From: Mytilus edulis
Lineage: Eukaryota
Assembly: GCF_963676685.1 (NCBI RefSeq)
Contig: NC_092345.1
Span: 47,616,001-47,680,000 of the forward strand
DNA: 64,000 nt
Direction: 5' to 3'
Below, one piece after another: positions 12,545-62,715 of this stretch (its first letter is position 1; the number at the start of each line of letters is the position of its first letter). The notes under the pieces were generated by a model. It had not been told where the DNA came from and ran no database searches. It was given only the letters and a program-made list of their open reading frames with translations. The translations under genes were made by a program, and so were the position numbers.

Positions 12545-13090
12545 TATTCTGTTACACCGTTCCGTAATTTGTATAGTTCGTTTGATTATATTCTTAATCT
12601 GTTTATGTGTTCCAGTCTAGGAGGATTATTCATCTTTAACGTTAAAACATCGTACCGTCGCTACCTTTCCCTCACTCTCACGTATCCGTTACAGGAAAAC
12701 TGCAAGATCATTACGATCACCAGGAACATTTCGTTGAGACGTCATCTTGGACACAATTCGTGGCTAACCACAGAGTGAGTTTATTATAAACATTGTAATT
12801 AAAGCCTTCAAATTGCCTTCCGTATAATTGAACCTTTTCTCCGTGAAATACTGGATATGTAACCGTTCTTGAAAGTACAACATTTTCTCGGATTCAACGG
12901 ACTGTGCTATCAATTATTTTGGACATTTCATGCACTAGAAACATTAATTCAACACATTGTAAAATTGTATTTTATTTGTTTTTCAGCTTTTTACCATTTG
13001 TTAGATTGGTTTGAGAATAAATTATCAGCACCTGATAGTCTTGTTGCTTGAGCCCAATCGTCGGTTAAACTTAATGGTCAGGCCATTACA
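12545..13090 (+). repeat. Bel/Pao 3' LTR
   Basis: Direct repeat of 7705-8250, preceded by the PPT. Confidence 0.95.
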
Positions 13091-21088: not shown

Positions 21089-21209
21089 TTAGTCGCATTG
21101 TTTCTTTTCGAAGGCATATTTATAAGCAACTTCATTGTAGAATCCTTCCAAAGACTTTGTTCCCCTCAAACTAGAATCCCTTCTACCAAAGGCTTGTCGT
21201 ATCTGCCAA
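21089..21209 (-). CDS. Last coding exon, cytoplasmic tail
   Basis: TTTCAG acceptor; [39 protein letters not shown]. Confidence 0.75.
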
Positions 21210-24200
21210 CTGAAATTTAAATTAAATTTTTAATCAAAAGTTGATTAGTTCATAAAGTTTATTTTCGTCACATGATCGTTATAATAAATCAAATATATTT
21301 GAGTTAAAGTAGAATTTTACATTTAGTCTCAATAAATTACTGCAAATATTGTTTAGAATGTGTAAATGTTTCTGTCAACACGTCCATACAATAGAATACA
21401 AATGTAACGATAGATGACATTCATCTTATAAAGAAGATAGCATACTTGAAATTTTTATAGAGAAGGAATGTATAGATATAAAACAACCAACTGATAGTCC
21501 TTTAACTACAGTCAGAATGATATTATCAATTGTCTATTTATTAATCATGCTTAAATATTTGCATGTAATCTTCGAATTTTTATGTGATCCAGATTATAAA
21601 TATTTGTTAATTTATATTTATTTAAATGTCTAAATAAATGAACTGACTGCATCAACACTCATTCATATCTATACATACTTATCATCTTCTTGTTGTCCTT
21701 GCACTATTAATTCAGACTTTCTTTTTTTAGATCTACAGAACATGCATATCATGATCGTTATAAAGATCGCAAATGCGGCAATGGCTAGAGGTAATCCTAT
21801 ACCTAGGCCCAGTATCAAATCTGATGAACTTTTACCTAAAATGGAGAAACAAAATATATAACTTCACAATACATTTTCAACTGAGTTGGTAAGCCTTTCC
21901 TAAAAATTTGGTGTTTTGCAATGGCCAGTAAAACTCTTTTATTGAAATCTAAAATTCATTCGTTTAAATTTTAAGAAATTTGTTGTACAACGCCACAGAG
22001 AGATTTTGTTCATATTTAGACTCTCTCTCTCTCTCTCTCACGTTTGAATTTTGCAATCAATCATGAACCAAAATTTCTGAACGGCAAAAAGGAAATCGTA
22101 ATGAACAAACTTGAACACAAAAAATACAGCATATTAAAATTTAAGAGCATTGACTGAATGGTTAATGAATTATTGCATGAAAATAGCATGTGCAACTTTC
22201 TAATGAATCAAGGACCACAAGTCAAAAACAACCCAAAAAAAGAGCGTAAATTCCGAACCTGAACTCTACTCTATAATCAGTAACACAAAAGTAAATTAAC
22301 AAAAATACCAAACTCCGAGGAAAATTCAAAACAGAAAATCCGTTATCAAATGGAAAAATCAAAACTCGAAAAGGTCAAACGAATGGATAACAACTGTCAT
22401 TTGATTGAATTTAATAAATATTTTTATTCTTATTTATTCCTGGCAGAAATGTGGTGGATTAAACCTCTTTTTTAGCTAGATAAAACTCTCAGTTGTATGA
22501 CATCATAGGTAGAAACGTCAAAAATAGGGGTACAACAGTCAACATTGTGTTAAAATCTTAATTACTATAAATTACTAAAAAAAACAAACAAATGTGTAAC
22601 AAAGAAAACCAAAAAGGCATAAAGATGAAGCGTTCTAGCAACAACATGAAAGACAAGTTTACAATAATTTACCATAACACATCAACACAATCGCGGGATG
22701 TATAAGTACAGAGCCACTTCATACATGTATGTAACAAAGAAACACCAACAGGCATATGGGTTCCAAAAATATATGGTCTCTGTATATAATCATTTGACAT
22801 GCGGGAAATCATTATGCAAGTTGAAAAACAAGAACATGAACACGAATACTGGTCTTGCCCTTCGTTTATTCTTTTAAAATTGTAGGTAACCATGATTTAC
22901 GGTTTATGAGTTACATAAACACACAAATCATAGTATACACAAAAGGAAACGAGAAGCATTGTGAACAGAAATGCCTCGGTCAAAATTTAAAAGATCACCC
23001 AGAATACGTACCAGGCTTTCAGGATGGACATTGATTCGATATCTTTTACAGTTTTGGAGAAGAACAGATGACGAGAAAAACATTATAAGGGAGAAAACTC
23101 CCATATTAAACCATATCAAAAAAGCAAGTTTTAAAAGAACAACTATCAATATCAACTATCTTATCAACACGTTGTGACACAACAGCGACATTTCAGAAAC
23201 AAACAGAAAAAAATCATCTGAACAACAATATATCAGTCTGTCCTAAAAAAAGTGAGGGAAAAAGATATCAATATCATTGCAAAAGCAAAATTGCCACATA
23301 CACTAATATGAATTAACATGTAAAATAAAAAGTAAAATCACACAAGTACTGAACTCCGAAAAAAATTCAATCGGAAATTTCCTTATGCCATGACTAAATA
23401 AAAAGCAGAAGCACATCAAATAAATAGACAACAATGGTCAAATTCTTGAATTGGTACATAAATTTTCTTGTGTAGATAATGGTGGATTCAACCTTTTTTT
23501 AAAGCTAGATAAAACTTCTCTCTGAAACGTACATCTTTATGAATAACACTGGAAACCAATATTTTTTCTTGTTAAACAATATGTTTGCCCTTAGCTACTT
23601 TAAATGCCTCCTAATGAGTATTAAATGTTACACATTACAAGTTCTATTAAGGAAACATTAGTATACTGCTGTTCTGTAGTAATCATTCAATTAAGGAAGT
23701 TCACTGCTCAGTTTCAAAATAAATAGCTATCCATAACACTAGTATATATTGATTAAGGACTAGTTAATTGAGGAATAAAGAATAAAATAAAAATAAAAAA
23801 ATATAGGGGTCAATGTGCTTGTTTTCGAGATATTAGCCAATGGAATTTTGCCGGGAAAATGTCATCTCTTAATTTTTCATAGCTTTACCATTGACCAGTT
23901 AAAATTCTCAAAAACTTGAAAAATAAATAAGATTTTATAAGACTTTTACAAATGGCTTATAATTATACATGTAAAAGATTTATAAAAAGAAAAATAGGGG
24001 TCCATTGGCAAATTTTTTTAAAGCATTCAAATTGATAAAACCCGAGGATTACAAAAATCTGACAAAAAATCCAAAAGCAAATATCCTTAAGCGAAACCGT
24101 TGGAAACATACCAAATATAAAAATGCAACGGAACAACAGAAACACTGAACTGCAACAAAAGCAAACACCAACAAACATAAAAACGGACTATTTGGTAACA

Positions 24201-27200
24201 CATGCAATCTTCTTGACTTGGTTCACATAATTTGAAATGGTGGGTTGAACTTGATTTTATGGCTAGCCAAATCTACCACTTAATATATGGCAAACTTGGC
24301 TGATACTAATTAAACCTCATCATCATGGATTTAAACTTAATCTGTCCTCACATTATATTGTATTCAGTGAAATTTGAAGTTTTACTTTTCTTCCAAAAAT
24401 TGATTGACCATTCAGCCTGTATCAAATTGATTTCGGTTAAAACTTTCATCATATTGCCGTTCTATGAGAGTATTGGTATTCTTATTGCAATTAAGATAAC
24501 ACTTTACATACTTTGTACAGTGGTAGTAGTTCGTTCTGAAGTTGAGCTTGCTGTGTGTTCTGTTGTTGGTTGATTACTGTAATGGATGTAGAAATATATT
24601 TTTAAAGTATTACTGAAATGATGATCTTTATTGATTTTATATAACAAAACTCATATACATATATCTGTTTCTAATTTTTCATCTTTTGACAGCGAATTTG
24701 ATCATAAAAAAATTAAATATAATGCTCTTCCATATTTTATAAATTACTGTTCGGTGTGAACCAAGGTTCCTTGTTGGAAACCGTACTTTGATCTATAAAG
24801 GTAAATATTGATATTAATATTGATTTTGTTATCAGTAAGTTAAAGTCAAACTAATATACAAATGCACATGCACGGCTTTTAAATCCGTCCATATCTGTAT
24901 CTTTACTGGCATTGCAAAAGGTATTTATATTCTCTGACCGTTAATGAATTCAAAGCATAGAATTATAGATTATCGTTGATCATCTCAACGAGATTGATTT
25001 TCCCGCTTTAGCCGGTACGGCGAGAGCGAGAAAGGCAATCGAGTTGAGATGATCAATGATAATCTGTTTATCGCTATTTTACCTATGACAACGTGGTCAA
25101 TTTCATGTTAATTTCATTAGCAACGCCACGTGCCTCCTTAGTTTCTAGCAATAATTTTCCATCTCAAGCGAGTAGCATGATATGAAAATTATCACAAAAA
25201 AAGATCAAAGGCAAATGCACAAAATAGCGATAATAATATATATAATGAAATTCATAATTCATGTGTATAAATCCGAATTAAACACATTTTGACTATCATG
25301 ATAAATACTTACACACATTGATATCTGGAAGTTTGAGTGACTTGTATACACTGCTGTGTCACAGAACAGGTACTACATATCACAGGTTCTACAAGTGAGC
25401 AAGTTACAATTATACATTAATTAGAAAAGACCATGAAATGAGCCATAACATGCAAAACTAGAGATACCACGAGGAAATCTCCAAAATTTTTCCCTTTGTA
25501 ATCTTCTTTTAAAAATGTATTAACCTTGACGACACACATTTAAACAGATTCGAACACCGCAATATTTATAAATGAAATGTTTCATCAAATATCATTTATA
25601 ACCATCAAGAAATGCGTAAGAATATGACTTTAAATATTTAACTATTAGGATGTTAGGCTGGTTGAAATAAGGAATCTGTACTGGGTAGGAACATGCATGA
25701 ATTATAATATTCTTTTGCCTACCAAAAAACACTAAATCATAGTAAAAAAAGTCATTCTACAGCAGGGATATCATGTCATTGATTGATAGAGTCTTGATAC
25801 CGCCTTCGATTTTAAAAATTTACCGTAATAAAACAAATCTAATCTTGTTTATAATTTATAATTACTTTCAAGTGTTGAAAAATATTTATAAATTTCAAAA
25901 TTTAAGTAATGACCATCTTCAATACAGTGGAAGTCGTTAACTTACTTCAAATCGTCACATAAAGTTCAAATTGACAAAGTGTCTTGATGTGAAATTGCAT
26001 TTCAAATTCCTTCATATTTTTATATTTATCTTATTAACCTCTATAACACTTAATAAATTTTGAATAAAGACAAATGTGTATATGAATTTAGCAGTGTTTA
26101 CTGAAAAAGTAAATGGCTCTGTGTGTAGTGCATTTGGTGGAAAGTCTTCGATTTAGATCTGTTCGTTTTTTTTCTAAATGACACCAATTTTGCTGACGTC
26201 TTTGCCAAACATTGCGATAACACAGTATTAAAATGTTAGCATGCAATACACAATAATTACAGTGGAGTCTATATAGGGTCGAACATTTGTTAAAACATTT
26301 ATTCTATAATAATTATATGTAGACCTCATTTATTTATATCTTTATTTTACCAAGTGGAATGACTTTGCCAAAAAATTGTCAATTAACTGTATTAAAAAAA
26401 CACTTCCCATGCTGAAAAAATGTTAGCTAAAGCATTAAGAAATCAAATTTCTATTTTTAAATTCTATCTTACCTAATGTTGTAGTTGTGTTGCCTAATGT
26501 AATACTGCCATTTACAGCAATGCACATATCTATAATATCTGTACAGGATTTATCTTCGGTTTCCATCTTTACCAATAAGTTCAAAACTTTATCATATTGT
26601 AATGTCTTATTAGCAACGGTGTTGAATATCACAACAAGGCTAGTTGTAACTCCCTCAGTGTGATTTCTTTGCAAATAAAAAAGGAGACACATTTTCAAAT
26701 ACAGAAAATGTATTGGTTCAGTTATTCCATTATTAATTTGTAAAGTATGAACAACTCAAATTGGACCAGTGTTTGGGGTTTTAAGAAAATAATTTGAAAT
26801 AATATTTTATTGATTCAATAAATCATCTACTACTGTTTATGGGGCTAAAAAAAGAAACTATTAGAAAACAAGCAGTAAGGCGACTGACAGTACTGTAAAG
26901 TACTCATACATTACACATTCTCACTATCAATATGCTAACCAAATATGAAGGCCGTCTGTTCAGTTAAACTGGAAAGTTGTACGATGGACAAAAAGGTCGA
27001 CTGCAATATACCCCTACTCCTAGAGTGGGAATAGGAGTAAAAGTTATCGTGTTGCTGCCTCATAGTGATTAATAATCCATATTTTTTCCATTAAATGTCA
27101 AAGTCAGACACTCCATGTGTTAAAATTAATCTTCCATTGTTATTGTTATATTTTAAATTATGATAAAAAGGAGTTATCGTTTTGGTTGATCCTAATATTA

Positions 27201-30200
27201 AATAAGGTTGATCCTAATATTAAATAATCAGCAAAAATCTCAACTTTGATGGTCGAAAAATTGCGTTTAAATATTCCAAATAATTCAGGGAAACATGCAA
27301 ATAATTCATCCAGGCTATAAAATGAAACAGCCGTTACATTCTTTCAATAAGTATCAGAAAACGTGGTAACATTGTATGTCTCACAAACATGCAAAAGTAC
27401 TTTCAGTTAAATATTGTAAGTTAAAAATACTATGTTGTAAAGTACAAATATCGTTAATATATTATACAATTACTGTGTTTTGATGAGGTAAATATGTAGT
27501 TTTATTTAGTTTTGATATACACGTAAAACCACGCGACGTATTGCGCGGACGGTGAATACACTTTTCCGCAGGTGAATATGCTTATTTATTCAAAATCCCA
27601 TTCATATAGAAAAACCTACTAAATTTTTATTAATATGGAATAATATTCAGTTATTTAGGGCCATTCAATAAAAAGGGGGGGGAGAATAAAACGTGCATCT
27701 ACATTCTTTTTGCAAGATATTGTCTTATAGTTTATAGATAATTTGAGACTACAACAGCGAGAAATACCAATTGATGTTCATTTTGAAAAAAATTCTATTG
27801 TTTGCCAAGAATAATTGTTTTTAATGATTAACAGGATTAACTGAAATTTTTCCAGCATTTAATGCAAGACTAATAATTTGTTTGCGTATATTAATTACCT
27901 GAAATCTGTCACATTTATGTACTGGATATCTCCGACATCACTCATCTCTGTTTTAAACTGACATTATATGAAAAGAGAATATTAAATACTGCATAAAAAG
28001 AGATAATTTTAAACTTTTGGGCAAATGCAAGATTGTTGTAACAACTAAATAAACTGGGCGTGCTTTCAAATAATGAACAAAGGGTTAACATTGAATGAGA
28101 ATTTTGGTATCAGATGACTTATACGATAATTAAACATGATAATTTTGAATATGTTACATCACTGGGTCGATACCTCTGCTGGTGGACTCTCAGTCCCCGA
28201 GGGTATCGTCAGCTCAGTAGTCAGTACTTCGGTACTGACATGATTTAACAAAATTTTCCGTTTGTAAATTTTGAAATTATTAAGAAACTAAGGTTTCAAC
28301 TCCCTCAGGCAAATTTGACTTTAGATGAATTTGGCTATTTATTTTAGGTATTTTTGTCATAAAGCTCTTCAACGCTTTCGGTACTTATACATCTTCGGAT
28401 TTCAAATGTTTGGTTTTGAGCGTTCCTGGTGAAGGTAAATCCAGAAAAGCACTTCGGACGCATAGAATTATTAAACGTGTTGTTTTCCATTGATTACTTA
28501 TTGACGTTGGAAACGTTAAAACAAAAATTATCAAAAACTTTCAAGAATGGACAATAAATTAAGGCTTTAATCGAAGAGGAAACATTATATAAGTATATAA
28601 GTAAGTTTTAATCATATGCTTAATTGCCAAAGGAAACATCGATTTCATCAATGTTGTGGACTTTTCCTTCAGTGCAACGACAGGTTTCAAATAAAAATAA
28701 TTTTTCTTACGTATTCAGGGTATGGTTGACATCCTGCTGATAAATTAATGATTTCTTACAATAATATACAACTACTTACTGCTTGTTCTATATCTTTTTC
28801 ATATGCAGCATAATCTAAATGAAGTTTATTTCCATAATTTGGATGAAATGTTTTCCGGAGAGTAGCCTCAATGAATAATGACCTACTCTCTAGTTTAGCT
28901 GAAACAGTTATATAGATCATATTTCGTATATTTATATTAACAAAAGTAACCCTTTACACATAATCAACATCTACTGGGACTCCTGATTTTCAATACTAGA
29001 ATGAGAATCTTTTTTCATTTTAAAAATAAAAGCTACTTTGTATACCCAAACAAGTCTCTCTTTACACATATGATGAAAAAAAAAAGAAACAAATTTTTGT
29101 GAGCTGTGATGAATGTTGGGAAGACATGTTTTTTCCTGTTTTCTTACTTTGTTTTGGTTCGTTTTGCTGTTGCCAAAATTCCAAATTTGTGTGATTTATA
29201 TATTTTCTTTTCTCTTCTTTTACAAATTTATGGATCATTCTATAATGCTATACATGTATGTATTAAATTGACATGTTGAAGATATTTTAATTTAGAAATG
29301 TATATTTTAAAAATGTTGATATATCTGCTTCAAATCATTCAATCAATCAATCATATAACTTAAAATTTATTATATTGCAATGAACATTACCGATGAGTCT
29401 TTTGTAGACGAAACGCGCGTCTGGCGTATATACTAAATTAAGTCCTGGTATCTATGATGAGTTTATTTATGTCTAAATCATTTATAGTTTTATCACAGGT
29501 TTTGAATTTTTTGTCTTTATCATGAGGAAGTTTTTACCTTCGAACATTTTTCAGATTAATAACATGTTGTACTAAACCAACAACCTGAGTCATTTCATAA
29601 GATGGCAGTTTGCAGAAGAAAAACAAAAAAAACTCCGTTTCACACCATTCAAACTGGGCGGAAAAAGTAAAATAACAAAGAGGAGAAGTCGAACTGGGAA
29701 AAATTCAATAAGCAAAAACAAAACCCTAAACACATTAAATGATTGAATACCACCTGTCATATTTCTGGCTTGGTACAGGCATTTTCTGGTTTGGAAGCTA
29801 GCTTAACCATTTACTTGTTTGACAGTCGCATAAAATTCCATTAAATTGAAAACGATTTGTGAATAAAACAAACAGACATTACTGGTAAAAAATGGTGGTA
29901 AAGTAGTCAAAAGTGTAGAGTAGTCTTAAATAATTGACAAAGACACATGGAATATTTTATCATGTAACTAAGAGGACAAACAAATCTGGTACCTATAAAC
30001 TATAATTCAAGACTTGGTGTATCATTAATGAAGTAGCGACGGAATATTTATCTAAACATGCTATGAGACGGGATATCAGTACGGGCACATTTTAAGGAGA
30101 TTTGAATAAACATGTACCTCCTCAATTCTAAGTTCAAGGAATAATGCATGAATAATAAATGTATAAAACACACAAACATAACTTACACAATGGTGGTCTG

Positions 30201-33200
30201 CATTCATAGGTACTTTTACGTAGTATAACACATGTGTGATTAACCCGACACAATGTACAGGTTAACGGCTCTAAAAAACACAGAAACAATATACATTCAG
30301 TTGTTATACGTAATCAAGCAACACATAAAAAAAAAACCAAGATTTTGAAACACATATCAATATCCGAACCATTCTTATGTATCAATAATTTCCTTTAAAA
30401 ATGCATCATGTATATTTCACTCTACTTTTTATTGCAACATAGACATACTCATTTCTTTTACAATTGTACACTGTTACCCACAATTTTGCAATGACGGTTT
30501 TTTAATCAATACATAGGAATAAAACAAATATTTTCATTTCTTGGTAAAAACCTTTTATGCTAGGTTTGACTTAAGCTGATCTAAATGAAGGTTGAAATAA
30601 GTTCAATTTAAACTATATTGAACATAAATTAACAAAAGGATAATGCGTAAATAGGACATAAACAAGAATGTGTCCACAGTACACGGATGCCCCACTCGCA
30701 CTATCATTTTCTATGTTTAGTGGACCGTGAAATTGGAATAAATTCTCTAATTTGGCATTAACATTAGAATGATCTTATCAAAGGGAACATGTATACTAAG
30801 TTTCAAGTTGATTGGACTTCAACTTCATCAAAAACCACCTTGACCAAAAACTTTAACCTGAAGCGGGACAGACGGACGAACAGACGGACAAACTAACACA
30901 CACATGCATACACAGTTTAGGGCCCTCTATTATGGAAATCAAAGAATTAAATCTTAGTCAAGAAAACATCTGTAATATTTCAAATTGTTCATCATTAAAA
31001 TGAGTGTTTTTTCAATTTTTAAATACATACGACATTCGGCCATTGGTATTATCTTTTCATCGCTGTAAAGTTAATCTAAGGATATCATTTCTACAACCGA
31101 ATAGTCTCAGTAAATAAATGCCACTGAATATAATTCCATACAAATCAGCGGTGTTAACAAATAGCAATACATACTTCCCAATCATGTTCAGTATATATTC
31201 AGTTAAATTTCAGTTTTATGCATTCCAAAACAGAGCTGTAAATGTTCGTATAGCATTTGTAAGTCATCTACATACCCTGATTTTTTGTTTGGTAGTTGAC
31301 AAAAGTTTCTCCTGTAACACCATATGACTTATCGAGTACAGTTATCTGTGTTATATTATTTGTTACACTGGCAGTCTCCATTATCAAACTGTCACTCAAA
31401 CTTTGGTTAAATACAACTATATACTGAACAACTGTACTACCAAACCTGCAAGTTAAAAAAAACGTTCGAGCAAAATTTACAGATTCGTTAGTTTTATAAT
31501 CTGATAAGAAATTTTAATATTATTTAAACTATCTTAAATACGTGTAATTCATATATACAGTCATTGCTTGACAGCTGCTGCTTGGTGTGACCAAAGACTC
31601 TGTCTCATTGGCACTCATACCACATCCTCTTATTTCTATATGTGTATGTTTAACAATTTGATAACAATATTTTCTACACGTAATTATGTGTTCTAATCAA
31701 TTGCATTGTATATAATATTCAGATAGAGATCACGTTAACATAGATAATTTGGAATGATTTTAAGTTAAAGCTGGTGCTCCTTATAATATTCAGGGTTATA
31801 ATTTAATCGGTTGGGTGTATTATTGCTCATAAATTCATTATTTTTTTTTTTCAAGCAATGTTATTCCTATAACCATGAAATTATGGAGGCAACAAGTTGT
31901 AAGCTCTCATGTTGGATCTTACAAAAGACACTTTCCTGTTTGCACGTGAGGTTTTTAACTTTCAAATCTATGAGCATTTTTAGAGTGGCAAAAATTATGC
32001 ATATAAAAACTAACGTAATGTTCTTTTTAAAAACCTCATGTGTAAATGTTCATACAAGTTGTTTTAATATTTTTAATTTTTTTTCAAGATTATACTTTGA
32101 TTGGATGATTGAATAATAGATCGATTGATGATTAATCAACACCTTGTCAGCACATCAAGGTTCTATCACATTGACAATTCCTTTTAGATTACAAAGTAAA
32201 TGATTACTTACGAAAAGCTGATTACAGTTAAGGATAAAAATCCAGGAATATTGCTGTATCTGAAATACAGCTGAAAAAAGAGAAACATTCTCCATTATAT
32301 CAGAAATTCATCAAACTCGGAGACTAAATATAAAACATTCGTATCTGGTATATCAGTACCAGAGAAAAACATGAACAACACTTGAATTTGTTTCAGAAGT
32401 GTTTTTTGAATTTTCATAGATACAAGAATACATGCTTAAAAGTTTTTTTCTTATGCAGATTTGGAAAGTCGTTACTGTGGTAATGTAATAATATCTTTTG
32501 AATTGATGTATTTTAATTCGCCTTGCTATTTTAGGCAAGTTACATGCTGTTAATAAATCGCAACTGGGGGTTGAATTCAAATACTGTTTGTACATTAGCA
32601 CATTCCTACAAGATTGCTACCCAATAGTGAAATCTGCCTCATGCTACATAAATGAGATATTAAACTGTGTGCCACAATGTGTTATTGAAGTACAAAAGTC
32701 AAAATATAGTTAAAGTCCATAAACTCCGATTAGGAATGGTCAAATCAAAATGACAGAACAATCTGGTCTTCTACACATGATGACACACAACCCTATTAAC
32801 TTTTCGAGCTTTCTTTCAATTTGTCTTAGGTGTTATTGTCACAATACTCCAAAATTTAGTTAAAGTCCAAAAACTTCCATAAAGAAGCTATTGTCACAAT
32901 AATCGAAAATATAAGTCCATAACTCTCTTAAAGGTGTTCGTGTTACAACAGTCCAAAATATAATCAAAGTCCGATAACTCCCATGAAAATGACTGGATCA
33001 AAACGACATGCAGTGTCATAAAGTCAACAACTCATGACATCAAACAGTCCTACAAAGAATGATAACTTTCTGTAAAACAGACTCAGAGAATTTCCGTCCA
33101 CATGGTTGAATTGGTACAATGTCAAAAGAAAATTAACCAAAGTCCTTTTAAACACCTGTAAAAATGGTCAAATAGATTAAATTGAGGATATATCACAAAA

Positions 33201-36200
33201 GATTATGACAAAAATAATCCTGCTTTTTTGTGTATGAGTTTCATAAAATTTTAAAATATAAAATATATATCAAAGTTTTATGTCAAACGGTCGTTCTGAA
33301 CTGATTTGTTTTGAACGGATGTATGTATGAAAAAAGACCACATACCTAGCAGCGCGAAGCGTGAGGAAGAAGGTCCACAAAGAGGTAATGCATTTTTTTA
33401 GTGCTTTCTTTTTTTTTCTTTTTTTTATAATTGATTTCTTTTTTTTATTTGCACATGAACATAATAATAAGTTATACACAATTTTTTTGTATAATTGTTA
33501 TATGAAATAGACAGGATATATATACTATTTTTGATAGACACAGCTGTAAGAGTTTGGTACATTGCAGAATATGATTGCAAGACAAAGGCTGTTTGGATAT
33601 AAAATGTATATACAATATATGTGGTGTCTGTTGCCTTTTTTGTGAACCATACTTGTAAATGTTCGTTGGCAATTGTTCGGTTTCAGCTGTTTAGGGACGG
33701 GATTTGCTTCAATGTGTTGAAGACCATTTGGTGGCGAGGGGTGTTTTATGCTTTTTTGTCGGGTTGTTGTTTCTTTGACCAATTCCTCGTGTCCATTCTA
33801 CATTTCCCGTTTCTAATTTTTAATTTTTAGAAACTTTTTACTGGACATTATCAAGCTACAAATTCCAGAACTTTTATTAAATAACTGAAATCTTTAAGGA
33901 CTTAGTCTGTAGAAGAATCTAACTTACTGCTACTTTAATATCAACTCGTGCATGTTTGAATTCATCTGTGGAGTGATCTGCCATTTCACTTGTGTATGGA
34001 AAATTTGTTGTCAAGTAAATCTCAACTGATATGAAAACAGCTACAAAAATATATAAATTTGATCAATTTTGATTCATTTGTAGTAAAGGCGGTTTTTTCT
34101 ATATAAAAAAAGAAAGCTTAGTACACTGAGTGAGTTTTTTGTCCTGCCAAATAAGATATGAGACAAGTTTTCAGAAACCTATTAAAACAGAATTGTTAAA
34201 GGCTAGCATAGTCATCTTGTGAGGCAACTCCCATGCAAACAATATACATGATGACTTTTCATCGTTTATAATAATAACCAGCTTGTACCAAGAAGGAAGC
34301 CTTGCAAATTTTGCTACATACAAAGTGATTTTCACAAAGTAGGCGTCTTCTTTATAATAGATGGGTTGCAAGCATTTACCTGAGCATGTCTGATTGTCAT
34401 GTATACTGAGTTTATAATTTTCTGGACAATAGCAGACAGGTTCACTGTTCTCTAGTACACAGCCATAGCTACAGTTGATATTGTTATTTGCACATGGGTC
34501 ATAATCTGAAGTATAACAAAACGTATTTACAGTTTTATATTATTAATGTAGACAAACGCCTGCATCTATTAAATTCATCAATGCAGCAAAGACAAATATA
34601 TATATTAAATCGAATTATACGCATATGAAAATTAACAAGTCCATACATGAGTCTCTGACGTGCATTATTTATTATTTGAAAATTTATGAAATAAACTTAT
34701 AGTAGCTAGCTTCTATGCTTATAGTTTTGATTGGACCTGTATCCATCTAAATGAGGTCAAAGTAAGATTAACCATACATACCAGAAGGAAACGATCATTC
34801 CAAACATTCTTTGTACCAAATGTTTATAGAATTTAAGCTGCTGACTTGATATTTCAATCAACTATTTGAGAAACATGCAAAAACATACTACCTAGACACT
34901 TAGCATAATACCATGAACGTGAGATCAAGGTCAGACTAACCTACAAGACCGACATGTACATCTTTTAATTGTTGTATACACTACGTATAGTTGACTCATT
35001 ATCATCAACCGAGAGATGAAAAAAAATATGCAAAAATAGCATTAACTAATTATAAATTAATATTGAACATTGAACCATGAACGCTGAAAATGAGGTTAAG
35101 GCAAGATAAACCTGTCAGGGATACATGTACATATAACAATCATATATTTATCAAATATAATCGTTTACTGCTAAAACTATCTGAAAAAAAACAAAGTATG
35201 AAGCATCCAGGATTATTTCAGAAATTTAAAGGTTAATAGAAATTGTTTTACGGCCACAACTGCTTGATTATCAGTCACGTCATTCATTCTTAGTCTTTTA
35301 TTGCAGTCAAAAATGAATCAATAGACAAAAACAAATCGATTCTTCAACAGTATCTAAAAAATCCACTTTTCATGAAATTTTATATTCCTTTTATTCGCAG
35401 GTATATTCACTTTTTATACCAATAAGTTGGCAGACATCTGACATATTCCAAACAGACATTTTGGAAATAAGACATCTTCGTGGGACTATGAGTTATAGAT
35501 TGTCTAGCTTCTCTATCTTGGAAATTGTAGCTCTTAACAACTTTATAACACTCTGCTGTCGCACAACTGTCAGGTCAAATTCAAGTAATGTTTTGACTTA
35601 GTGTCATTAAAATTGTGAGGATATCTGACTGAATAATATACAAAATACAAAATATGAATAAATTACCTCTGCTACAGCTACTTTGATCAGAGTTCAATAC
35701 AAAACCATCTCTACATGAACAGTTGAAACTCCCAATTGTGTCCACACATATCTGCTCACAGTTATTGATTAACAGTGTACACTCGTCAATGTCTGAAAGT
35801 AAATAAAAATGTAAATTCTTAATATTGAATTTTCGTTTTGACAACCGCATGAGGAGTAAATCAGACCACCAAATTAAAACATTATTAAAACTTACCCTTA
35901 TTGTCCACATTTTACACATAAACAGCCATTTTTTCCTTTAAAAATGCCCTGTACCAAGTCAGGAATATGGTCATTGTTATATTATAGTTCGTTTCTGTGT
36001 GTATTACATTATAACGTTGTGTCGTTTGTTTTCTCTTCTTTTTGAGTGTAAATTCACATTGCGATAAGACGTGTCACGGTACTTGTCTATCCCAAATTCA
36101 TGTATTTGGTTTTGATGTTATATATATATATGTTATATTTGTTATTCTCGTGGGATTTTGTCTATGTGTGTTACATTTTAGTGTTATGTCGTTGTTCTCC

Positions 36201-39200
36201 TCTTATATTTAATGCGTTTCCCTCGGTTTTAGTTTGTTATCCCGATTTTGTTTTTTGTCCATGGATTTATGAGTTTTGAACAGCGGTATACTACTGTTGC
36301 CTTTATTTTTTACTACAAAATGTGTATACAGTTCATCAAAATTTTAAATTATAAACAAATATACATGTAGCTTTTTATTCTTGTTGATCAAAATTATGTT
36401 TTTAGAAAGGATGTCTACTGGATTTACACAGCAATGGCATTTGAACACATGAAACAAATAAAAAAATATTTCAACAGAAATATGAAAAAAATAAAATATT
36501 GGCCTTGTGTCAATGAAACATTAACCAATTTAAATAAAATAGAAGGACATCTACATGTTTTGATATATATATTCGTGTTGCACTTATTGTTTATACAATG
36601 ACAAGGAAAAAGGGAGTAAGACAAAACATTTTAACTTGATAATATAAGATGAAAAGTTTAAAAATATAAAAGTTGAATTAAAAAGTAGATTGATATCATT
36701 GAAAGAGAAACAAAATATATTTGCTTTTTTTTCTTCAATTAAATTTTATATTCAAATGTATGAAAAAGTAACATGTTTATAATTTTCTGACATGGTTAAG
36801 ATTGACATTGTTTCCAAAGTATGCAACTATTTATGTTGGTTCGATACTTTGTAACAATCATATTATACTACAGTAACCGTACAAGTGTATGTCGTAGTTG
36901 GTGGTATATTTCTGGTATTTCAATGTTTTCATTTCGTTATTCATGAACATTTTTTAGTTTATTAGAAGAAAATAACAAGACAATATCATTCCTTCCGTTT
37001 CTTCTTGATAACTGCTTCATATCAAAAGTTGTGAATCAACATTTTATAACTCTTACTTATACATGTTGTGTTCCCTGTCAACTCAAAACCATCCTCACAA
37101 GAACACAGATAACCTCCAGCAGTGTTGATACACCTCTGATTACAAGAATGTGTTTCTAAAACACACTCGTCTTCATCTGAAAAAATATTTTGTAGTATAG
37201 CCATTAAATTTTGTAAACAAAGTGTTCAGACTTCTTATTCATTCTTCATTTTCAGTTTCGATATTATTGCAGTTTAAAAGCTTATTAATTCACAGGTCTT
37301 GCAGAAATGGTCATAAATAATATAAGGCCCTGTAATGTCACCAACCCTACGCATTGACTGATATCCTCATTTATCGCATTTTTATGCACAAGAATTGAAA
37401 GGTTTTCTTAGAATGTAGATATAAACCAAGTCCGAGGACATAATTTGACTATGACTTAAAAAAATACTTTCTCAACTTTATTAAAGCAACATCATGAGAA
37501 GATTTTAGCAAAGACATAAAAAAAAATCAAACATTTTGTTTGAACTAACATAGAATGTATTTCAGTTTTAATAAAACATGTTTTACAATTAAAAGTCGAT
37601 CACCACAGGATAGTGTTTGAATATCAGTCAGGTTGACCGTTGTCAATATAAACTATGAAGCATTACCATGTTAAAAAGTCATGTTTTGCAAAATTACGCA
37701 ATTTTCTGATTTGTCTTTTTCATTTTATGTTTGTTTTATCAATATGTCTAACTAAAACCACACATATTTTTATTATGTGAATTATTAATTTGACACTTGG
37801 TGCATTTCCGCTAAAACGTAAACACCTTTTGATAAATAATTTGGTTGTTTCACAACTGATGACTGCAAATTTATGAACGTATTATTTACACCTGTTTTAG
37901 TTAATTAAATTTTGAATGGAAATGGGACGTGTGTCAAAAGGACAACAACCCGACCATAGAGCAGACACAAGCCGAAGGCCATCAATTGGCCTTCAATGTA
38001 TCGAGAAACTCCCGCACCCGCGAACGTCCTTCAGATGGCCCCTAACCAAATATGTATACTAGGTCAGTGATAATGGACGTCATACTAAACTGCGAATTAA
38101 ACACAAAAAAATAAAACTAAAAATGTCTTGGCTGCGATGTAAAAACAGAAAGACTGTTGACAGTACAGCCCTCATTTACTAAATCACATGATAGTTGGTA
38201 CTATAATATTTATGTTGTTAAACTGAAATAGAAATGAAACAATTTCTAATTATTTCAAAGTACTTTTTTTTACTTAGATGTGAGTCCGTTGACAAACAGG
38301 AAGATATAACATACGAAAGAAAGATTTGGTTCAGCTACATATACCAGTTTAGGTTTTAACATAAGTCAAGCGCGCGTCCAATTCTTTATAAACATAAAGT
38401 GATAATATATATAAAAAAATATATTAAAAATATTTGCTTTTAAAAAGGATATTCATAGAATGTTTTTCATTTACTATGTGTTACTATATATAGATTATGT
38501 ACTCTTAGAATACCCCTTGTGCGTCCTGTCCAGTAATTTTCTTTAAACACGACATTATCAACTACACACAAGGCAAGAAATACAGTATTGACAATAGATT
38601 AAAAAAAATTGAGCTATATTCAGTAAACCTTTTATAGTGGTATATTTTACTGATTCTGTAGATGTTATATGGTTGTCGTTTGTCTCTCCGGCAGGTATAG
38701 ATGATTCAGAGGTATATTCTGTAGTGGTTGTCGCCATGGATCGCAAATCTGATGTATACTTTTCAATATATATAGTACTTGTTTCACTCCCCACTGTCTC
38801 ACTAGTAGCTAATGACTCTGCAGAGTAGTAAATTGACAAACAAAAAGGTAAAACACAATAATACTATATGGTATACATTAGAAGTGAAGTGCAAAAATTC
38901 AAATTTGAATACGGACTGTTTAAAAATGGCTTAATAATCGTAAAAGTTGTATCTACTTATAGTAAACAGTTTTTCTTACCAACACGTACACTTTTATGCT
39001 AAAACAATGTGAACATTTATCATATAATAGCTTATTTGTAAAAAAAAAAATGGTTTAATTATGGCATACATTTATCAGAAACTGTTTAAATATTGGGTCA
39101 ATTCGATAAGAGACTTTTTTAAAACTACCAATTACCACAACTGTATAAAACTAAGCAGGATTATGGGTTGCTATGAAGGTTTAAACTACATTACAGAAAA

Positions 39201-42200
39201 TATCCTCTACATGATCAACGCACATTATTTTGTGTATTGTTGACATTTATTTTTCTTTTATTTACTAGCTTTTGTATACATTTTCAAGCTTGAAGTTGCA
39301 TATTTCTCATCCACAACATAACTATATATTATGTTGTATGTTTTAAACTGATCATATTTAATTTACAAAATTAATAATTCAAAGGCAATCTTTACATACC
39401 TTAATAACGGTTAAACTAAACCCTCTTTAATTTTTTACACATTGAACGTAAGGATTATAAGTATTACAGAGCTCACCACGCTAATGATAAGTGATACTAA
39501 ATCATTAAAATTTCGTTCAATATAAAACTTCTATGTAACAATGTTTGGAAATTTATTTCTAGTTCAGTCGTTATATTAAGTAAGGGATAGAAATTTCAAA
39601 AGTCGTTGAACTTTCTAAAGTCTTACCTTTTACAGTGGTATATTCCGCTGTAACAGGAGGTGTTGTATGTTTGTCATTTGTATGTACATAATGTACAGAT
39701 AAACCAGTCGTATCTTCTGTAGATATGATTGGCGTTACATTAGATTCTGGTGAATTCATTTCATGAGAACTGGTACTTGTTTCACTTTCCACTGTCTCTC
39801 TAGCAGCTGATGACTCGGCAGCAATATTAGTATATTCAGTTATATATGAAGTCAATGGTGATACTGAACTTGGTGTAGTGTCTGTAGATGATACTGAAGA
39901 AGTTCCATAGTCAGTTACAGTTATAGTGATATTTGTCATAGATGACTTTGATGGGATGCCATGATCTACTATTATAACCTTAAATTCATACACAGTCGTT
40001 GAATTCAAAAGAACTTTCGTTTTTATACTTCCAATGGTCTCATCTATTGCAAAAACTGGTTCAATATCTTCATCAACTATCTGAAATGACATTTGGTCGT
40101 GATCAATGTCATGTCCTGATAGTGTTATAATAATTGATCCAATCGATACATCGAATGGCACGGTCTGTGAGTAACCAGTCATGTTGAATATGGGGGCATA
40201 CATATTCCGTGGTCCAAAAGTGATATCATACGTAACTTCCACACCCTCCTCAGTTGTTTCATTTGAGGGAATTAAATCAAATATATGGAGAAAAAACTTA
40301 TCAAGAATATGTGTTGTCTGCCATACATTCTTTTCAATCATTAGTTTCCTATTTAAACTTGATTTACATTGTAGTAAATTTTGATTATCAACAGGGTTTG
40401 AACTTGTGATGTTATTTTCCATTCTAGTGTACGTCCAGGTTGATGCGTTTGCTGTTACCTTGATATGTACCACTGTATAGATTTTGTTTTGTGATCGCAC
40501 GTACGAGCTAGTGTATAGTTGAGTTATATTTCCTATATAAACATCATATACATCTGATCCATTCTGACTGTTATAAAGTTTATCTGGCATGGCATTACTA
40601 TCCACAATGTCATTCACCAAAAAATCGTCAAAGTCATTAATTTCATTTTCTGTATTTATTCTTACTAAGTGAACAAGTTCATGATATCCAAGTTCATCAA
40701 ATAATGAAAGTTGGGGATCTCCAAGGGGGTTGATGTTTTCAAAGGTAGCAGTATAGTTGTAAAATGTTCCTTTAAGAGTTGACGTCAAGAGCCAAGTGGC
40801 AGTTTTTGTTTCAAAGGAATGAATGTCCCCGAAATCAACTACAAGTGACGGAGTAATTTGATCGTTTCCAAGTTTTGCACCTAAAATCGTAAATGTTATT
40901 ATTAAACCTTTTTCATTTTCAATGATTTCTGGCTGAGCAGATGAAATGCGGAGAGCCTGGGCTGTGCCAAACCCATCATTCATTACAGACACTGCTAAAC
41001 TAAATGGAATAATTGGCTCAATAGCTGCTGTTAATGGATCATCTCCTCTTACATACTTTTCGTGGAAATAATGCACCACCAGACTAGGATTAGGTTTCAC
41101 AGTTATGATGTCTGGAAGCAAAGGAACAGAAAAGTTTGAACCACCAACACTGTAGGATAACTGACCTCCAACATTATACAATGTATCCTCTTGTGGAGCT
41201 GCTGTAGAATAAGGTATCATTAACCATTCAGCTGACCCTGAAAAATCTTTTCCAAGGGTTCCCTCTCCGTCTACACCAGATATTCCTATTAATGACGGTT
41301 TACCTGAAAATACATTCGTCTGCTATATTGAAAAATGATATAAAAAAAAAAACCCAAAAAATCTCTTATAAGCCTATGTCGCTCACCTAGGTAGAAGTTT
41401 AATTTTGAAAATAACCATCCTTTAACATTAAAGAAAAAAATACAATTAATGACTTAAACCTGGTTAAAGTTTAATTTTTATAGTTTTCAAAATAATAAAC
41501 AGACACGCAAACAAACAAAATAAAAAATCTCCACTCTTGACTTTTAAGTTGTCACATGGTGGCAATCATACCTCAACTTCGTATTCTTATATTGGTCTCA
41601 TATAGACAGGAAGCAGATAACAATATTGTGAACATTTCAGGAACTGTCATATTTTCTCTATATATATATATCAGTTATTAGACAGACAATATTTTATTCC
41701 TATTTTCCAATGTGAGTCACATTCGCTATGGCGGTAGGAAAGGTTTCATGGCTCATTTCTATACTGAAGAAATGTACCCTTAAGATGATAGTACCTAAGT
41801 TTACATCAACTTGGCCCTTTAAGTTTCAGAGGAGATTTTTGGAAGCAATAAATAGATGACTATACCAGACATCGATAGACTCAAAGTGACGAGAATAGTG
41901 TACTTGACCCTAAATGTCTTGCAAGCTAAAAAGAATAAAAGATTCATTTGCAGCACGCCTGTTGCCGTTTTAGTTCGTAATGTCATACCAGAAGCTATAA
42001 AACAACAAAGGCGAGTATTGCAATAGTCATAAATAAGTCACACAAACTTCCAAAAATTGGTTAAAGCGTATTTCAGTTATTGTCAAGAGTGAGACGATGG
42101 ACGAACGGTCAGACGGTCTGACAACAGTATTGTTTGTATTGGATACCTAAGCTTCATAGAATTCCGTACAAACAACGGTACATTGTCGGCTCATCTGCAT

Positions 42201-48200: not shown

Positions 48201-51200
48201 AAAATCCATATTTCAAAATTTTATAAAATTCTTGTTAATTTTTCATAATTTTTGAAACAGATAAGGTGCCAATGTTAAATATATGAAAAATCTTAAGAGA
48301 TTTATTTCCCGCCAAATTTTCAATGGCTTATATTTCGAAAACGAGCACACGGACCCTCCATTTTTTTCATATTTTAAAGTTTCTTTATTTATATACTATC
48401 AATCCATAACAGTCTTTTAAAAAGCTTGTTACTTTTTAACAGAGTAGCGAACATCCTTAACAGCTAACTCGTGCTAGTCTAATTTTTTACCTATTGAAAA
48501 CGTATCCTTTGCGGACTCTCCATTTCCAAAAGTTTTTGTAATTCTTATCTCCACTTTGATATTCTTCAATGCAGAAGTTTCTCCATTTTCCATTTCAAGT
48601 CTAGCATTAAAGGCATCTCGTGTTAGAACTAAGTCCTGAACAATTCTAACTCTGACTTTTGCACAAACGGAATCACTAGTACTACTACCACTCTGTAAAC
48701 ACATTAAAAAATAGGGATATTACAAAAGAGACTTATGTAAATGTGTGACTATAGCTGACACTTCTGGATATACGTTTTCTTAAAGCTTTATGCTTATTGC
48801 ATGTTAATTCATTTCACACTAAAGAGAAACTATCCTGTAAAGTTAATTTGAACGATTTAATAAAAAATCAGTAATAATGTGTTTTTGTACATAGACAATA
48901 ATAGTGCATTGACTTGACATATCAACGATATAAGGATGAGGCTTAGAAACGGGAAAATGCGAGGCTGTGCCGAGCATTTTCCCCGTTTCGGGCCGAATCC
49001 TTATATCGTTGATATGTCAAGTCAATGCACTATTATTGTCTTTATACTGCAATCTAAAAAAAAACATTTTCAATTGTTGTTTATTGTGTTAATGTTATTT
49101 TTTTTATTTAAATATTGGGAAAAATCCCCCTTTAAAAAGGCCTCATATCACACAGACGGAGAAATATAAAACCCGATGAAATGTACATCATTACCGCAAT
49201 CAATGGTGAACGAATTCGTTGCAGACTAAAATATCAACAATAAACATAAATCATAATGATTTATAGGTTGCAAACAAAAAAATATTAAAAAGTGAAATAT
49301 GTTTTCCCGAAAATTGCAAAAAAAAAACAAGTTTGAGTCGTTAAACGCATCGTTGTTTACATTGAAAACAAGAACAGGTTGAAGAGGTCGTATGAATAAT
49401 TAAACATAATTTCACCAATTTCTATTTAAATATTCATGAGGAAAAGTGATATCAGTTCAGTGACTGTATATTGCATAGAAATATACGGTCAACGCATTTT
49501 GACTGCTCAAATAGAACGAGTGCAGTATAAATTGAAATAAATATATTCAGTGTTGCAGAAAGTTGAAAAACGTACTTCATTTTTAATCAAGAAAATATTA
49601 ATTCTGAAACGTGTATGTTGATAGCTTTGTTTTTATGATTTTGTTCAGTTTTCTAAAAATATAATCATTGATATCACATATAACAGGTCTGAGGTTGAAC
49701 ATGATACAATGTCACTCTATGTCTCATTGTCCCTTCTGTATTGCAAAAAATGCTCACAATCAAACTGGAATGGAGTTCCTGCTGTTGAAGTATATTGCAG
49801 CACTTTTTAGCTAATTTGCCAATTTCCAACACAATGATATGCACATCTACATATTATGCACTATATATGCTAGTTTTCGGCGGCCTCCTTCTTAACGTTT
49901 GAGGTTTTGAATTTATAAAACTATTTCTCATTTATAGCTTACCTGACCTGAAACTACTGGACCAAATTTAACCAAACTTGGCCACAATTATCACTAGGGT
50001 ACATGTATCTAGTTGGAAGGATGTGTCCAATGACCCCTCCTGCCAACAAACATGACCGACATGGCTAAAAATAGCACAGAGGGGTGAAATATGGTTTGGC
50101 CTATACATGTATGTCTGAAACTAAAGCATTTAGAGCAAATCGGACATGGGATAAAAGATTTGATCAGGTTAACATCTATCTGCCCGTCAATTTTCAGACG
50201 AATCCTAAAAAACGTTGTTTTGTTGCTGCCCCTGATGTGGTAATTTTAAGGAAATTTTGAAGTCTTTGGTTATTATCTTAAATATTATTATAGATAGAGA
50301 TAAACTGTAAGCAGCAATAATGTTCAGCAAAGTAAGATCTTCAAATAAGTCAACATCACTTAAATTGTCAGTCAACCCGTTAAGGAGTAATTGCCCTTCA
50401 TAGTTAATCAGGTGAGCGACACAGGATTTTGAGAGCCTCTAGTTCTATTTTTCAACTATATTCATTCAAAATTACAAAATGCTTATACCAGAGTTTCTTG
50501 TTCGGCTGTTTTGTAGGTTTCTGTTGCATGGTCATACTCATCAAATATTGAATTAAATCCCTTTGTCTTAGCGTTGTTATGGTCATCAATATATTGTTGA
50601 ACTCCTGGATCCAGTGTTTGAAAATTTATTACATCAGCAGTATCAGCCAATGTGTTTAATGTCCCATCGTTCCATGCTGTTGCTGAAATGCATAACACAA
50701 TGTACCAATAACATCTGCATTCTCTGGTTTTTAAAAATAATATTGTTTGCTGACTTGTAATCTTGGAAAATGTTACAACATGTCAGTCAATTCAATGTCA
50801 TAACTTAAATATATGACTGTATGCTAGTCTTTCGAATTATTTATTTTATTATGGTTGATTTGGTACTTTGTTTGGTTATATGAATTCCAGTGAAAGTCAT
50901 GCATCCTCACCAGGAACGATGGATTATGCAATCGTCCTGCAGATACATGTACATGATGTATTGACCTGTTACTAGTATTAATCAATAGTTGAAGAAGTAG
51001 ATAGAGTATGAACGAAAAAATAACTGGTATATTCTGTTTGTTATGTATTCAATGAGATAGTCCAACTATCTAATAATTCTAAAAAGAGCTAGGCTCTTAA
51101 AAGTTTTACAATCCTATAAGAGTTGACTGTGAGCCAAAATAAGACCTACTGCAGAAAATCCGTCAGAGAACAATTGGATCTCCATGTTATCAGTATGCTA

Positions 51201-54200
51201 CAGCAGTTGTTTGACATTTTGTTTTAGTATATATTGTATACTTTTGTCACCAATAAAACTGACCACAATAAAAATAATGATTAAATGTTGGCTCAATCAA
51301 TCAATTACTATAATACGATGATTTTACATTTAATTACTGTTATAAAGATATGATAAAATTACAAGCAGCAAATCTTTAACGTAAGCAAGGTAACAAAATG
51401 CACTCGCAAAACAAAATCTAACACTTAGTTCAAACTTCCTTAATAATGTTTTTTCATGAGAAATTAAAAGTTAGCTTTGAATAAACACAGCAGCAGAAGA
51501 AAATAAACTTATTGTAATGGAACCATTCATATTGCAAAACATCAAATACCCAAATAGGCAGGTTGAAAAATGGAGAAAAGCGACAGTTCCTAAAATTCCT
51601 TCTTATATTGTGAGCAAGGCATAATAAAAGAGAAATAAGGTACCTGTGTTGTTCCATCTTTCTAAGAATTTATGCAATGTAACCTTCTGTGTTTCGTCGT
51701 TAATAGCACTAAGTACTTTGCTCAACTCTTCTGGTGACAGCTGAATTCCTAATGGACTTTCATCAGATATAACTGGTTTAAATGCTCGATACCATGACGT
51801 ATCTACATCATACCTATTAATTAAACAAATGATGTTCAATCTGGACAAATAAACGTTTTGAAAAATCAAATTAAAGTCAAAACAGACTGCATTTGCTTAT
51901 TTCAGAGAGCTGTTTTAGCCTCATCAGAAATGTTAAAGCGACAGATAAGTAGACCAAATATGGAAGCTTTTTAATTCCAAAAGGTTTTAAAACATAAACA
52001 GAATATACCAAAGATATAATTTCGATTATGGGAGACAGACTTGGAAACTTTGAAACTTAACAAGTGTATGTAGTGGAGCAAAATCTTTTAAGCAATCTTT
52101 TCATTTTATAACTTATGATTACACCTTTGGTATTTATTATTCGATAGTTTGGCAGTATTTTGCAGAAAATAATATTCTTCATATATAAAGCATAAAAAGG
52201 ACAGGTTTATCAAAATAGAAATTAAAATATTGAAAATCAAATAAGGTTGTAAACTTTAAAAAGATTACAGAATCACTATCCATCACATCTACAGAACATA
52301 TCTACTGATCATTTCGAAATAAAAGATTGGAAAATTCTGCAGGCAAGAACAACCAGTTTTCGGTTACACTCTGTAAGATATGCCCTGCATGTACTGTTTA
52401 GTGACGTTAATAAACAAACCGTTTTGAACCAGATCAAAAGTTTTAACAATGTCTAGAATGGTAGCCCTTGTATATGTGGCTATTGCAAATTAAGACCAAT
52501 CTTAGATGACACGTCCTGAAGACGTTTTAATGGAGACTCAATAAAAAAAACAATCATGTTTAATCTTCGGAGTTTTATTTAAATAGATGCAGTAATGAAC
52601 AGAAACTATTTGTGAACACACAAACTATAAACATATGGGTCCCTCCATCAGCAAAGAGGTTAGTAGAACCTAATATTAAAATGTGATTTATGTGTTTCGG
52701 TTAAAACCTCTACAAAGCTTATCTTATATTAGTCCCCCCCCCCAAAAAAAAAGCATTTCAAGACGTCATAATTGTTTGAACTAATGTTATTTTAAGTCAT
52801 GTCTACTGACTGTAAGTAAAACATCTAAAACTATGTATCTCTTTACTTTACAAGTTTTCATAAGATCTTTCTGGTATAAACACAAAAAATGAATAAGCTA
52901 TTAGTTTAATAAAATATAATTATTTTATTTACATGTTTTCATCATTAAAAATCTGCTGCATCAATGCAAAGAAATTATCAACAGGCTTGGCAGCATCTAA
53001 CAGATTGTTCACAACTTCACTGCTAACATCACGTCTTCGCCGTCCACCATTACCACAGTTGTAACTAACATCAACTAGACATCTGTCAAAATCATTTTGA
53101 TAAAAATGATGAAATTTGTTTATCATGTTTATATACCTTAGAATAAATTTTCATATTTCATGTTAAATGCACGATTTAATTAATTTAAACGACGGAGACA
53201 CTTTTATCTTTGTGTTCCATGCTTTACTGTAGATAAGAAAAGGTTACATCGAACAACCTCTGAATAAAATAACTAGTTAATAGAAATTTCAAATATTTGA
53301 ATTGTAAACAAGTCTAATACCCTGTTATGGAATTCAAAATAAAATCCATAAATAGGGGATGAGGCAGAATCTCCTACCGATTTTCCTCGCTCTCAGTGTA
53401 TACGTAGGGGTTCAATAGTGAATCGTGCGACTTAGAACCAAAGGAACATATGAATGGTCAGGAGGATGGACGCATACTTTTTTAATAGTGTTTATTTGAT
53501 ACAATATACTACCTAGTTACTGAGTACAGCACTGCGACAACCCCGCCAACACATCCAACAAATGTATCAATAAGTGCAAGACTAACATCCATTAATCTAT
53601 AGCTAATTCCTCCTCTATTTTCACCCTGTAAACAGATAAAAAGTATTCTTGGAAGATATTCAGACACAGATGAGTTAATAAAAATAAACTTACAATATTT
53701 CATATGTCAAACAAACTTATTTGGTGTTTTAAAATCAATTTATTAACCTTGCTAAGTATTTATCCCGGTTAATTAAGAAATCAATAATATGTAAACTTTC
53801 TTTTGAAATTAAATCAGATTGAAAGGTAATTTTGACAAGCTGGTGTATGATCAATTAACTTCCTGCATGCTTGAAATTCAAAATGCAAGCAAGTAAATGA
53901 TTACAAGAGAATAGTTCATATTTAAAATGATATGTTCTTAGATAAAACTTGAATGGTTCCACATGTAATGTCATTAGTGTTTGGCAGCCTTGTTTGGGAA
54001 GGTAAGCAGGCAGATATTTAGGGTCTTTCAAGTCTCCTTTGCAACACCAGGTATGCTTACATTTGCAAGATGTGCCACCAGCGCATGACACAACCTAATG
54101 GTGTGCATGTCGAAGTTGTTACAAACACACAATAGAATATTTAGATGGAATTTAATCAGACGCTAAAAAAATGGCTCTGAACAAAAATATGTCTGCGGAT

Positions 54201-62715: not shown

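Follow-up and report, generated by a model that had tools for sequence, protein, structure and literature searches.

Conserved basic sites frame part of a candidate membrane-inserting cassette in a giant surface protein of the mussel Mytilus edulis

We describe here a 180-residue segment with 12 cysteines (residues 2685–2864), enclosed by the basic motifs RRKR and RRRR, within P0187, a 4,236-residue membrane-anchored protein of Mytilus edulis. The protein matches, exon by exon, the product of a minus-strand gene in the 64,000-nucleotide stretch of DNA analyzed (the window). Our tentative interpretation, to which we give somewhat less than an even chance, is that the segment makes up one half of a cassette that can be swapped, carried by a giant surface protein, and that the module containing it is protease-armed, tethered and membrane-inserting. 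We favor a membrane-inserting role because the basic sites are conserved in loops predicted to be disordered, and because the helical bundle between them is predicted to be a separate domain, is hydrophobic, evolves fast, and is swapped in bacteria for other cassettes that look lipid-facing.

The sequence-only reading of this DNA had proposed that the two motifs bracket about 180 residues with 12 cysteines, and the motifs, their coordinates and the spliced segment were all verified. Exon A (62715–62418, minus strand, as are all features of this gene) encodes the end of a predicted Ig-like domain, basic site 1 (RRKR, residues 2681–2684, at 62640–62629) in a predicted disordered loop inside that MSP/ASH-like domain, a beta-hairpin and a Gly/Asp linker; two predicted beta-strands completing the Ig domain lie at 62607–62536, with the near-invariant Cys2701 at 62580–62578. 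Exon B (60596–60433) carries the end of the linker, the near-invariant Cys2779 (60525–60523), bundle helices 1 and 2 and the first hydrophobic segment (60492–60454), and exon C (53625–53513) carries helices 3 and 4 and the second hydrophobic segment (53574–53536). Exon D (53082–52932) contributes the end of the bundle, basic site 2 (RRRR, residues 2861–2864, at 53042–53031), also in a predicted disordered loop, and the first helix of an acidic helical domain. These exons splice in frame. The B–C junction (53624/60432) is present in 4/4 runs and the C–D junction (53082/53513) in 3/4, both with GT-AG ends, in contigs presumed, rather than recorded, to be RNA, and the 364 nt predicted between 62505 and 53082 are exactly the content of one contig. 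Since the contig junctions and the 364-nt contig agree with the predicted splicing, a wrong exon model is rejected. The intron after exon A contains a short degenerate tandem repeat (61300–61540).

The acidic helical domain, which is the second half of what we call the alpha cassette, continues on two exons (51812–51644 and 50682–50489, spanning 50489–51812), and a further exon (48486–48692) opens a conserved core and holds the invariant Cys3028 and Gln3037, with an 11-residue stretch at 48668–48636. A large exon (39628–41300) encodes the conserved Ig-like core, which is 31–52% identical to bacterial homologues, a cadherin-like domain and the start of a Ser/Thr stalk. From the module to the C-terminus the protein continues with the stalk, EGF domains and SEA-like regions (exons within 24510–38818) and ends in one transmembrane helix and a short cytosolic tail (the final two exons, 21092–21833). 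Its N-terminal part consists, in order, of beta-helix repeats, EGF domains, IPT/TIG, Ig-like domains and a carboxypeptidase-regulatory domain, and P0187 as a whole has 81 sequons in addition to the C-terminal transmembrane helix. The stored P0187 model probably lacks its true start, and exons resembling the discoidin domain of its relatives are located further upstream; a signal peptide was not located in the window copy, where the start of the model is likely missing, and leader sequences are visible by eye in five relatives.

The same genome encodes several paralogues: two close ones on the plus strand, which have a hydrophobic C-terminal tail that by eye is GPI-signal-like, a pair on a different contig, and one copy that is broken. 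A family copy at G000:C2:47945690-47947541 has its core exon split across frames, with a stop. The window also contains a 1,287-residue plus-strand open reading frame (8497–12357) with a weak DUF1759 match and near-identical stretches on either side (7699–7935 and 12530–12775), and the region 7699–12775 is probably a BEL/Pao-type LTR retroelement between two facing paralogues.

Both basic sites are conserved among animal-like homologues. Dibasic residues are present at both loops in 58 of the 68 animal-like homologues (11/17 named-animal and 47/51 other animal-like ENA homologues), versus 2/25 bacterial homologues, counted per protein. The full R-X-K/R-R motif is found at both loops in 21/68 (10/17 named-animal and 11/51 other animal-like ENA homologues) and in 0/25 bacterial proteins. 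The background per 30-residue interval is 9% for dibasic residues and 1.7% for the full motif, and whole P0187 has three R-X-K/R-R motifs against 0.34 expected. Because the sites are conserved across homologues, far above the per-interval background, a chance origin of the motif pair is ruled out. Ten of the 68 animal-like homologues miss a basic site, and one mussel paralogue is without basic site 2. The same two places in the bacterial proteins are flexible loops, often Gly- or Arg-rich, and in the mussel protein both loops have pLDDT below 50 in an AlphaFold2 model of residues 2481–3340. A conserved R-X-K/R-R in an exposed loop is the sequence signature of a proprotein-convertase site, and both putative sites bear it, as judged from alignment and model.

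Two models inform the anatomy of the module: the one just mentioned (model 1; 42 sequences, pLDDT 80, pTM 0.61) and one of the cassette of a paralogue-type protein, P0050 (model 2; 50 sequences, pLDDT 85, pTM 0.59). Model 1 places site 1 inside an Ig-like domain that is completed by the two strands after the site and matches major sperm protein over 111 residues (Z 9.9, rmsd 3.5). These strands are followed by a Gly/Asp linker of about 50–55 residues that is predicted to be disordered, and the whole insert is flanked by strands of one split beta-sandwich (GAE domain match: Z 9.7, rmsd 3.1, 102 residues). For the window copy, model 1 gives a poor prediction of the first bundle half; in model 2, four helices in an up-down bundle precede site 2, and a helical domain of its own comes after the site. 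The bundle has pLDDT 75–86, the two-domain model reaches a pTM of only 0.59, and fold matches mostly span one domain or the other and are generic (best Z 6.1); the bundle is predicted to fold as a domain separate from the acidic one. The enclosed 180 residues are thereby predicted to comprise Ig strands (the first ~35 residues), the Gly linker and a bundle of ~80 residues. The proposal that they form one releasable, free peptide does not hold up, because the first ~35 residues complete an Ig-like domain that belongs to the N-terminal piece, and near-invariant cysteines could tie the segment to the C-terminal piece. The opposite outcome, in which the segment is the buried core of a soluble fold, is not what is predicted either: the bundle is modeled as its own domain and the sites lie in disordered loops.

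The bundle is hydrophobic and close to neutral, with a median GRAVY of +0.68 and a median charge of -1 across 50 homologues. Its best 19-mer reaches a KD value of at least 1.6 in 21/50 homologues (13/50 with cysteine set to zero), and the neighboring helical domain, which alone forms the comparison set, does so in 0/50 and has a median charge of -14. Within P0187 the bundle (exon C) ranks second in 19-mer hydrophobicity at 2.11, after the transmembrane helix at 2.62. The near-neutral charge is unlike that of typical cationic antimicrobial peptides and is a point against the antimicrobial option of the sequence-only reading. The cysteine pairs 2781/2856 and 2789/2848 are lost together in 14/14 and 4/4 cases and 2797/2834 in eight rows (134 rows in all), which points to three nested disulfides within the ~80-residue bundle; the six bundle cysteines and the hydrophobic character are retained from Bacteroidota to molluscs.

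The expectation that the enclosed segment evolves fast was borne out for the bundle, with a dN/dS of 0.85–1.1 versus 0.08–0.3 in the regions beside it, and bacterial homologues swap the bundle altogether. By simple codon counts over 90 codons, comparison of the window copy with two paralogues gives 0.85 and 1.10 for the bundle, 0.32 for the helical domain and 0.08–0.09 for the core; between the two paralogues themselves the values are 0.43, 0.24 and 0, respectively. This pattern fits selection that is either diversifying or relaxed. Across four runs only 0–4 letters differ in exons B and C, so the variation lies between paralogues and not within the window gene. The positions of two related hydrophobic segments on separate exons were confirmed, but their likeness is peculiar to the window copy, in which a stretch of ~23 nt recurs nearly unchanged in exons B and C (Z 4.8 versus codon shuffles); the paralogue exons are without it (Z 0.9), and a family-wide repeat is rejected. 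The shared stretch (60454–60492 and 53536–53574) possibly reflects local conversion in this copy. The turn prolines of the paralogues are also lost from the window copy bundle.

Three further cysteines are nearly invariant in the 134 rows: Cys2701 in 133, Cys2779 in 131 and Cys3028 in 134. Because they number three, and because the cysteine count of the module is odd in 140/172 proteins and 67/97 further ones (related sequences, so that the counts are not independent), one cysteine is likely to be without an in-chain partner. This would be compatible with a thiol-switch tether, an inter-chain bond or a thioester. Gln3037 is kept in 182/183 sequences. Thioester-domain motifs are given as [YFL]C-Phi-zeta and Phi-Q-zeta-Phi-Phi in PMC4450167. 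The context of Gln3037 fits the glutamine motif loosely, and the cysteine contexts do not fit [YFL]C-Phi-zeta.

Named homologues are found in bivalves, gastropods, Lingula, Lamellibrachia, two shrimps, a rotifer and Saccoglossus, and many ENA proteins group with these. A genome scan identified at least 573 loci in bacteria; of these, the best 80 are mostly from Verrucomicrobiota, Planctomycetota and cyanobacteria; Bacteroidota members include Fjoh_3246 of Flavobacterium johnsoniae. The alpha cassette profile recovers 818 clusters at 50% identity, and the cassette lies outside the scaffold in 0/139 new hits (both flanks were present in 97, and the other 42 ran into an edge), which leads us to reject a stand-alone peptide family. 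Neither core nor cassettes match Pfam or NCBIfam, and a PDB sequence search returned only the cadherin domain for the mussel protein and nothing for the alpha or beta cassette. Fold searches gave generic Ig and helical-bundle matches, with no saposins, pore-formers or TEDs among the matches listed and no credible fusogen (viral class I/II or fusexin) among those listed for BFVD and PDB; atlas searches gave unnamed clusters below 0.9, the second query covering only part of the beta cassette. We found no description of the family in the literature searched, largely openly available main texts. On the core tree the 27 animal-like rows lie on one side of a branch with FastTree support of 99, and IQ-TREE support for the animal-like branch is 100 (13 rows, in a set of 48 picked by hand). 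We infer a bacterial origin of the family, on an unrooted core tree, because cassette diversity is greater in bacteria. Among the animal-like records, a Saccoglossus protein with three tandem modules and a Halocaridina protein with two (P0235/P0236) may be fused gene models, and many ENA homologues of ~2,200 residues (P0026, P0064, P0135 and others), several of them on equally long contigs, point to extensive expansion within a single animal group.

In bacteria the slot is a swappable cassette on a conserved scaffold. Cassettes could be scored at 68 of the best 80 of the at least 573 loci, the other 12 being incomplete sequences: 43 are alpha, 13 and one borderline case are beta, five hold a Gly-zipper helical insert and six are empty. 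The beta cassette is Cys-stapled and amphipathic, with an amphipathic helix and long hairpins, and both the amphipathic beta-hairpins and the Gly-zipper helices look, from their sequences, lipid-facing as well. The 101 bacterial rows of the core tree show 21 changes of cassette type; for the beta cassette at least seven changes are forced by well-supported branches, and at least five in a second tree analysis. Microcystis scaffolds that differ by only ~0.01 changes per site have a beta cassette or an empty slot, and both alpha and beta occur in a single Verrucomicrobiales genome bin. No shared or cassette-linked small open reading frame resembling an immunity gene was found downstream among the best 80 of the at least 573 loci (10/80 ended at an edge on the downstream side). 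In seven loci, with alpha and beta cassettes alike, the gene is directly followed by a common, apparently secreted protein of ~250 residues (L040, L058, L066, L077, L086, L091 and L096). Separately, L066:5392-6252 and its relatives (beta cassette) could be a pore-forming or lipid-carrying domain.

Beyond this anatomy, we infer a series of steps by which the module could act. A furin-type convertase would cut both loops in the secretory pathway, with the three pieces held together by beta-strands that they share and by a disulfide among Cys2701, Cys2779 and Cys3028; that the middle piece would stay bound after the cuts is judged from a model of the single chain. The N-terminal discoidin-like and beta-helix domains would then bind a target, and this binding would free the bundle from its acidic neighbor, perhaps via thiol-disulfide exchange, allowing it to swing out on the Gly linker of ~50 residues and enter a lipid surface, for example a microbial membrane. 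Several observations stand against membrane insertion: the near-neutral bundle, no pore-former among the fold matches listed (best Z 6.1), no shared immunity-like gene downstream, an empty slot in 6/68 loci, 0/25 bacterial proteins with a furin consensus at both sites, a missing site in 10/68 animal-like homologues and in one mussel paralogue, and variation that lies between paralogues instead of within the gene. Alpha pore-formers must also open up, and three nested disulfides would hinder such opening.

There are several other models to consider. The cassette could be a variable tip with which an adhesin or receptor recognizes its target or binds lipid, with the convertase cuts serving only to mature the protein and nothing inserting or killing. 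The remainder of the mussel protein is built like an adhesin, with beta-helix, EGF, TIG and cadherin domains and a stalk, bacterial scaffolds carry Calx-beta, CARDB and Big domains, the bundle is disulfide-stapled, empty-slot versions exist with no immunity gene found downstream, and fast change fits recognition equally. We nevertheless consider this model somewhat less likely than membrane insertion, since two conserved flanking cuts would not be needed and the hydrophobicity of the bundle is unusual for an exposed domain. The odd cysteine count raises the prospect of a covalent trap, in which the unpaired cysteine is engaged in a thioester with Gln3037, or in a disulfide open to exchange, and the cassette is a cap taken off by cleavage, comparable to complement C3 and bacterial thioester adhesins. 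However, no thioester domain is found among the fold matches listed for the Cys/Gln region, the cysteine motifs do not fit, and an inter-chain disulfide explains the odd cysteine equally well, so that we regard a trap as unlikely.

The retention of six bundle cysteines and of hydrophobicity from Bacteroidota to molluscs, together with the replacement of the bundle by unrelated cassettes in bacteria, argues against the segment being a folding pro-piece or spacer that finishes the Ig domain and is cut in maturation with no activity of its own. We think this improbable, although the first strands of the segment do complete a domain, a dN/dS near 1 can reflect relaxed selection, and the turn prolines of the paralogues are gone from the window copy. 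Shedding of the bundle as a signaling peptide also seems improbable to us. Anaphylatoxin C3a offers a comparable architecture, and the ~80 residues, four helices, three disulfides, split Ig scaffold and adjoining convertase site would suit such a peptide, but there is no ANATO match, a basic C-terminal effector tail is absent except for the cut site, and the same cassette occurs in bacteria.

A wider extension of the membrane-inserting interpretation, which we offer as speculative and would not expect to hold in full, is that bacteria of the PVC group, cyanobacteria and Bacteroidota use a delivery scaffold in which alpha or beta-hairpin membrane-inserting cassettes sit in a split Ig fold and are freed by proteolysis and a three-cysteine switch. 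The alpha version would have been acquired once by an early animal, furin sites would have been added, and the protein would now serve as a contact-dependent weapon or fusion device on invertebrate cells. If true, this would be a second teneurin-like gift from bacteria to invertebrates, with a cell-tethered, protease-armed, fast-evolving membrane-active tip, and a new arm of mollusc and crustacean defense or adhesion. The family is large and unnamed, and in Fjoh_3246 of F. johnsoniae it has a culturable, tractable member in which function is directly testable.

Several known systems share features with this family. Teneurins and bacterial teneurin-like proteins, as presented in 10.1101/2025.11.11.687626, have variable N-terminal adhesion domains and variable cargo, and were probably transferred into animals. 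The mussel protein is similar: it is large and surface-bound, contains EGF and carboxypeptidase-regulatory domains and a variable cargo region, has relatives in bacteria whose N-terminal adhesion domains vary, and was probably transferred into animals as well. It differs in having no YD/RHS shell or beta-propeller (no RHS/YD Pfam match in P0187), in carrying its cargo internally between two loops instead of at the C-terminus, and in that no shared neighboring immunity-like gene was found. Polymorphic toxin systems combine a conserved scaffold, exchangeable cassettes and an immunity gene. Cassette exchange on a conserved scaffold, even between near-identical Microcystis scaffolds, and secretion or anchoring tails recall these systems, whereas the internal position of the cassette, the empty versions and the lack of a downstream immunity gene among the loci searched do not, and the cassettes match no known toxin family in Pfam or NCBIfam. 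Saposin-like proteins and small hydrophobic helical bacteriocins are cut from precursors and have ~80 residues, four helices and nested 1-6, 2-5, 3-4 disulfides. The bundle is like saposins in size, helix number, nested disulfide pattern and hydrophobicity but differs in cysteine spacing, predicted up-down topology and near-neutral charge, and there is no Sap Pfam match in 52 members. Complement C3 and alpha-2-macroglobulin contain MG, CUB and TED domains, a CGEQ thioester motif and a tetrabasic convertase site. Multiple Ig domains, helical domains inserted in split beta-sandwiches, a tetrabasic site, a small three-disulfide helical piece and a likely unpaired cysteine are all reminiscent of C3; in contrast, there is no A2M or ANATO Pfam match and no CGEQ-type motif at the conserved cysteine, and Foldseek matches to alpha-2-macroglobulin have TM below 0.1. 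The family fails the defining tests of teneurins, polymorphic toxin systems and C3, yet its logic is like that of teneurin-type and polymorphic cargo proteins, and its layout echoes that of C3.
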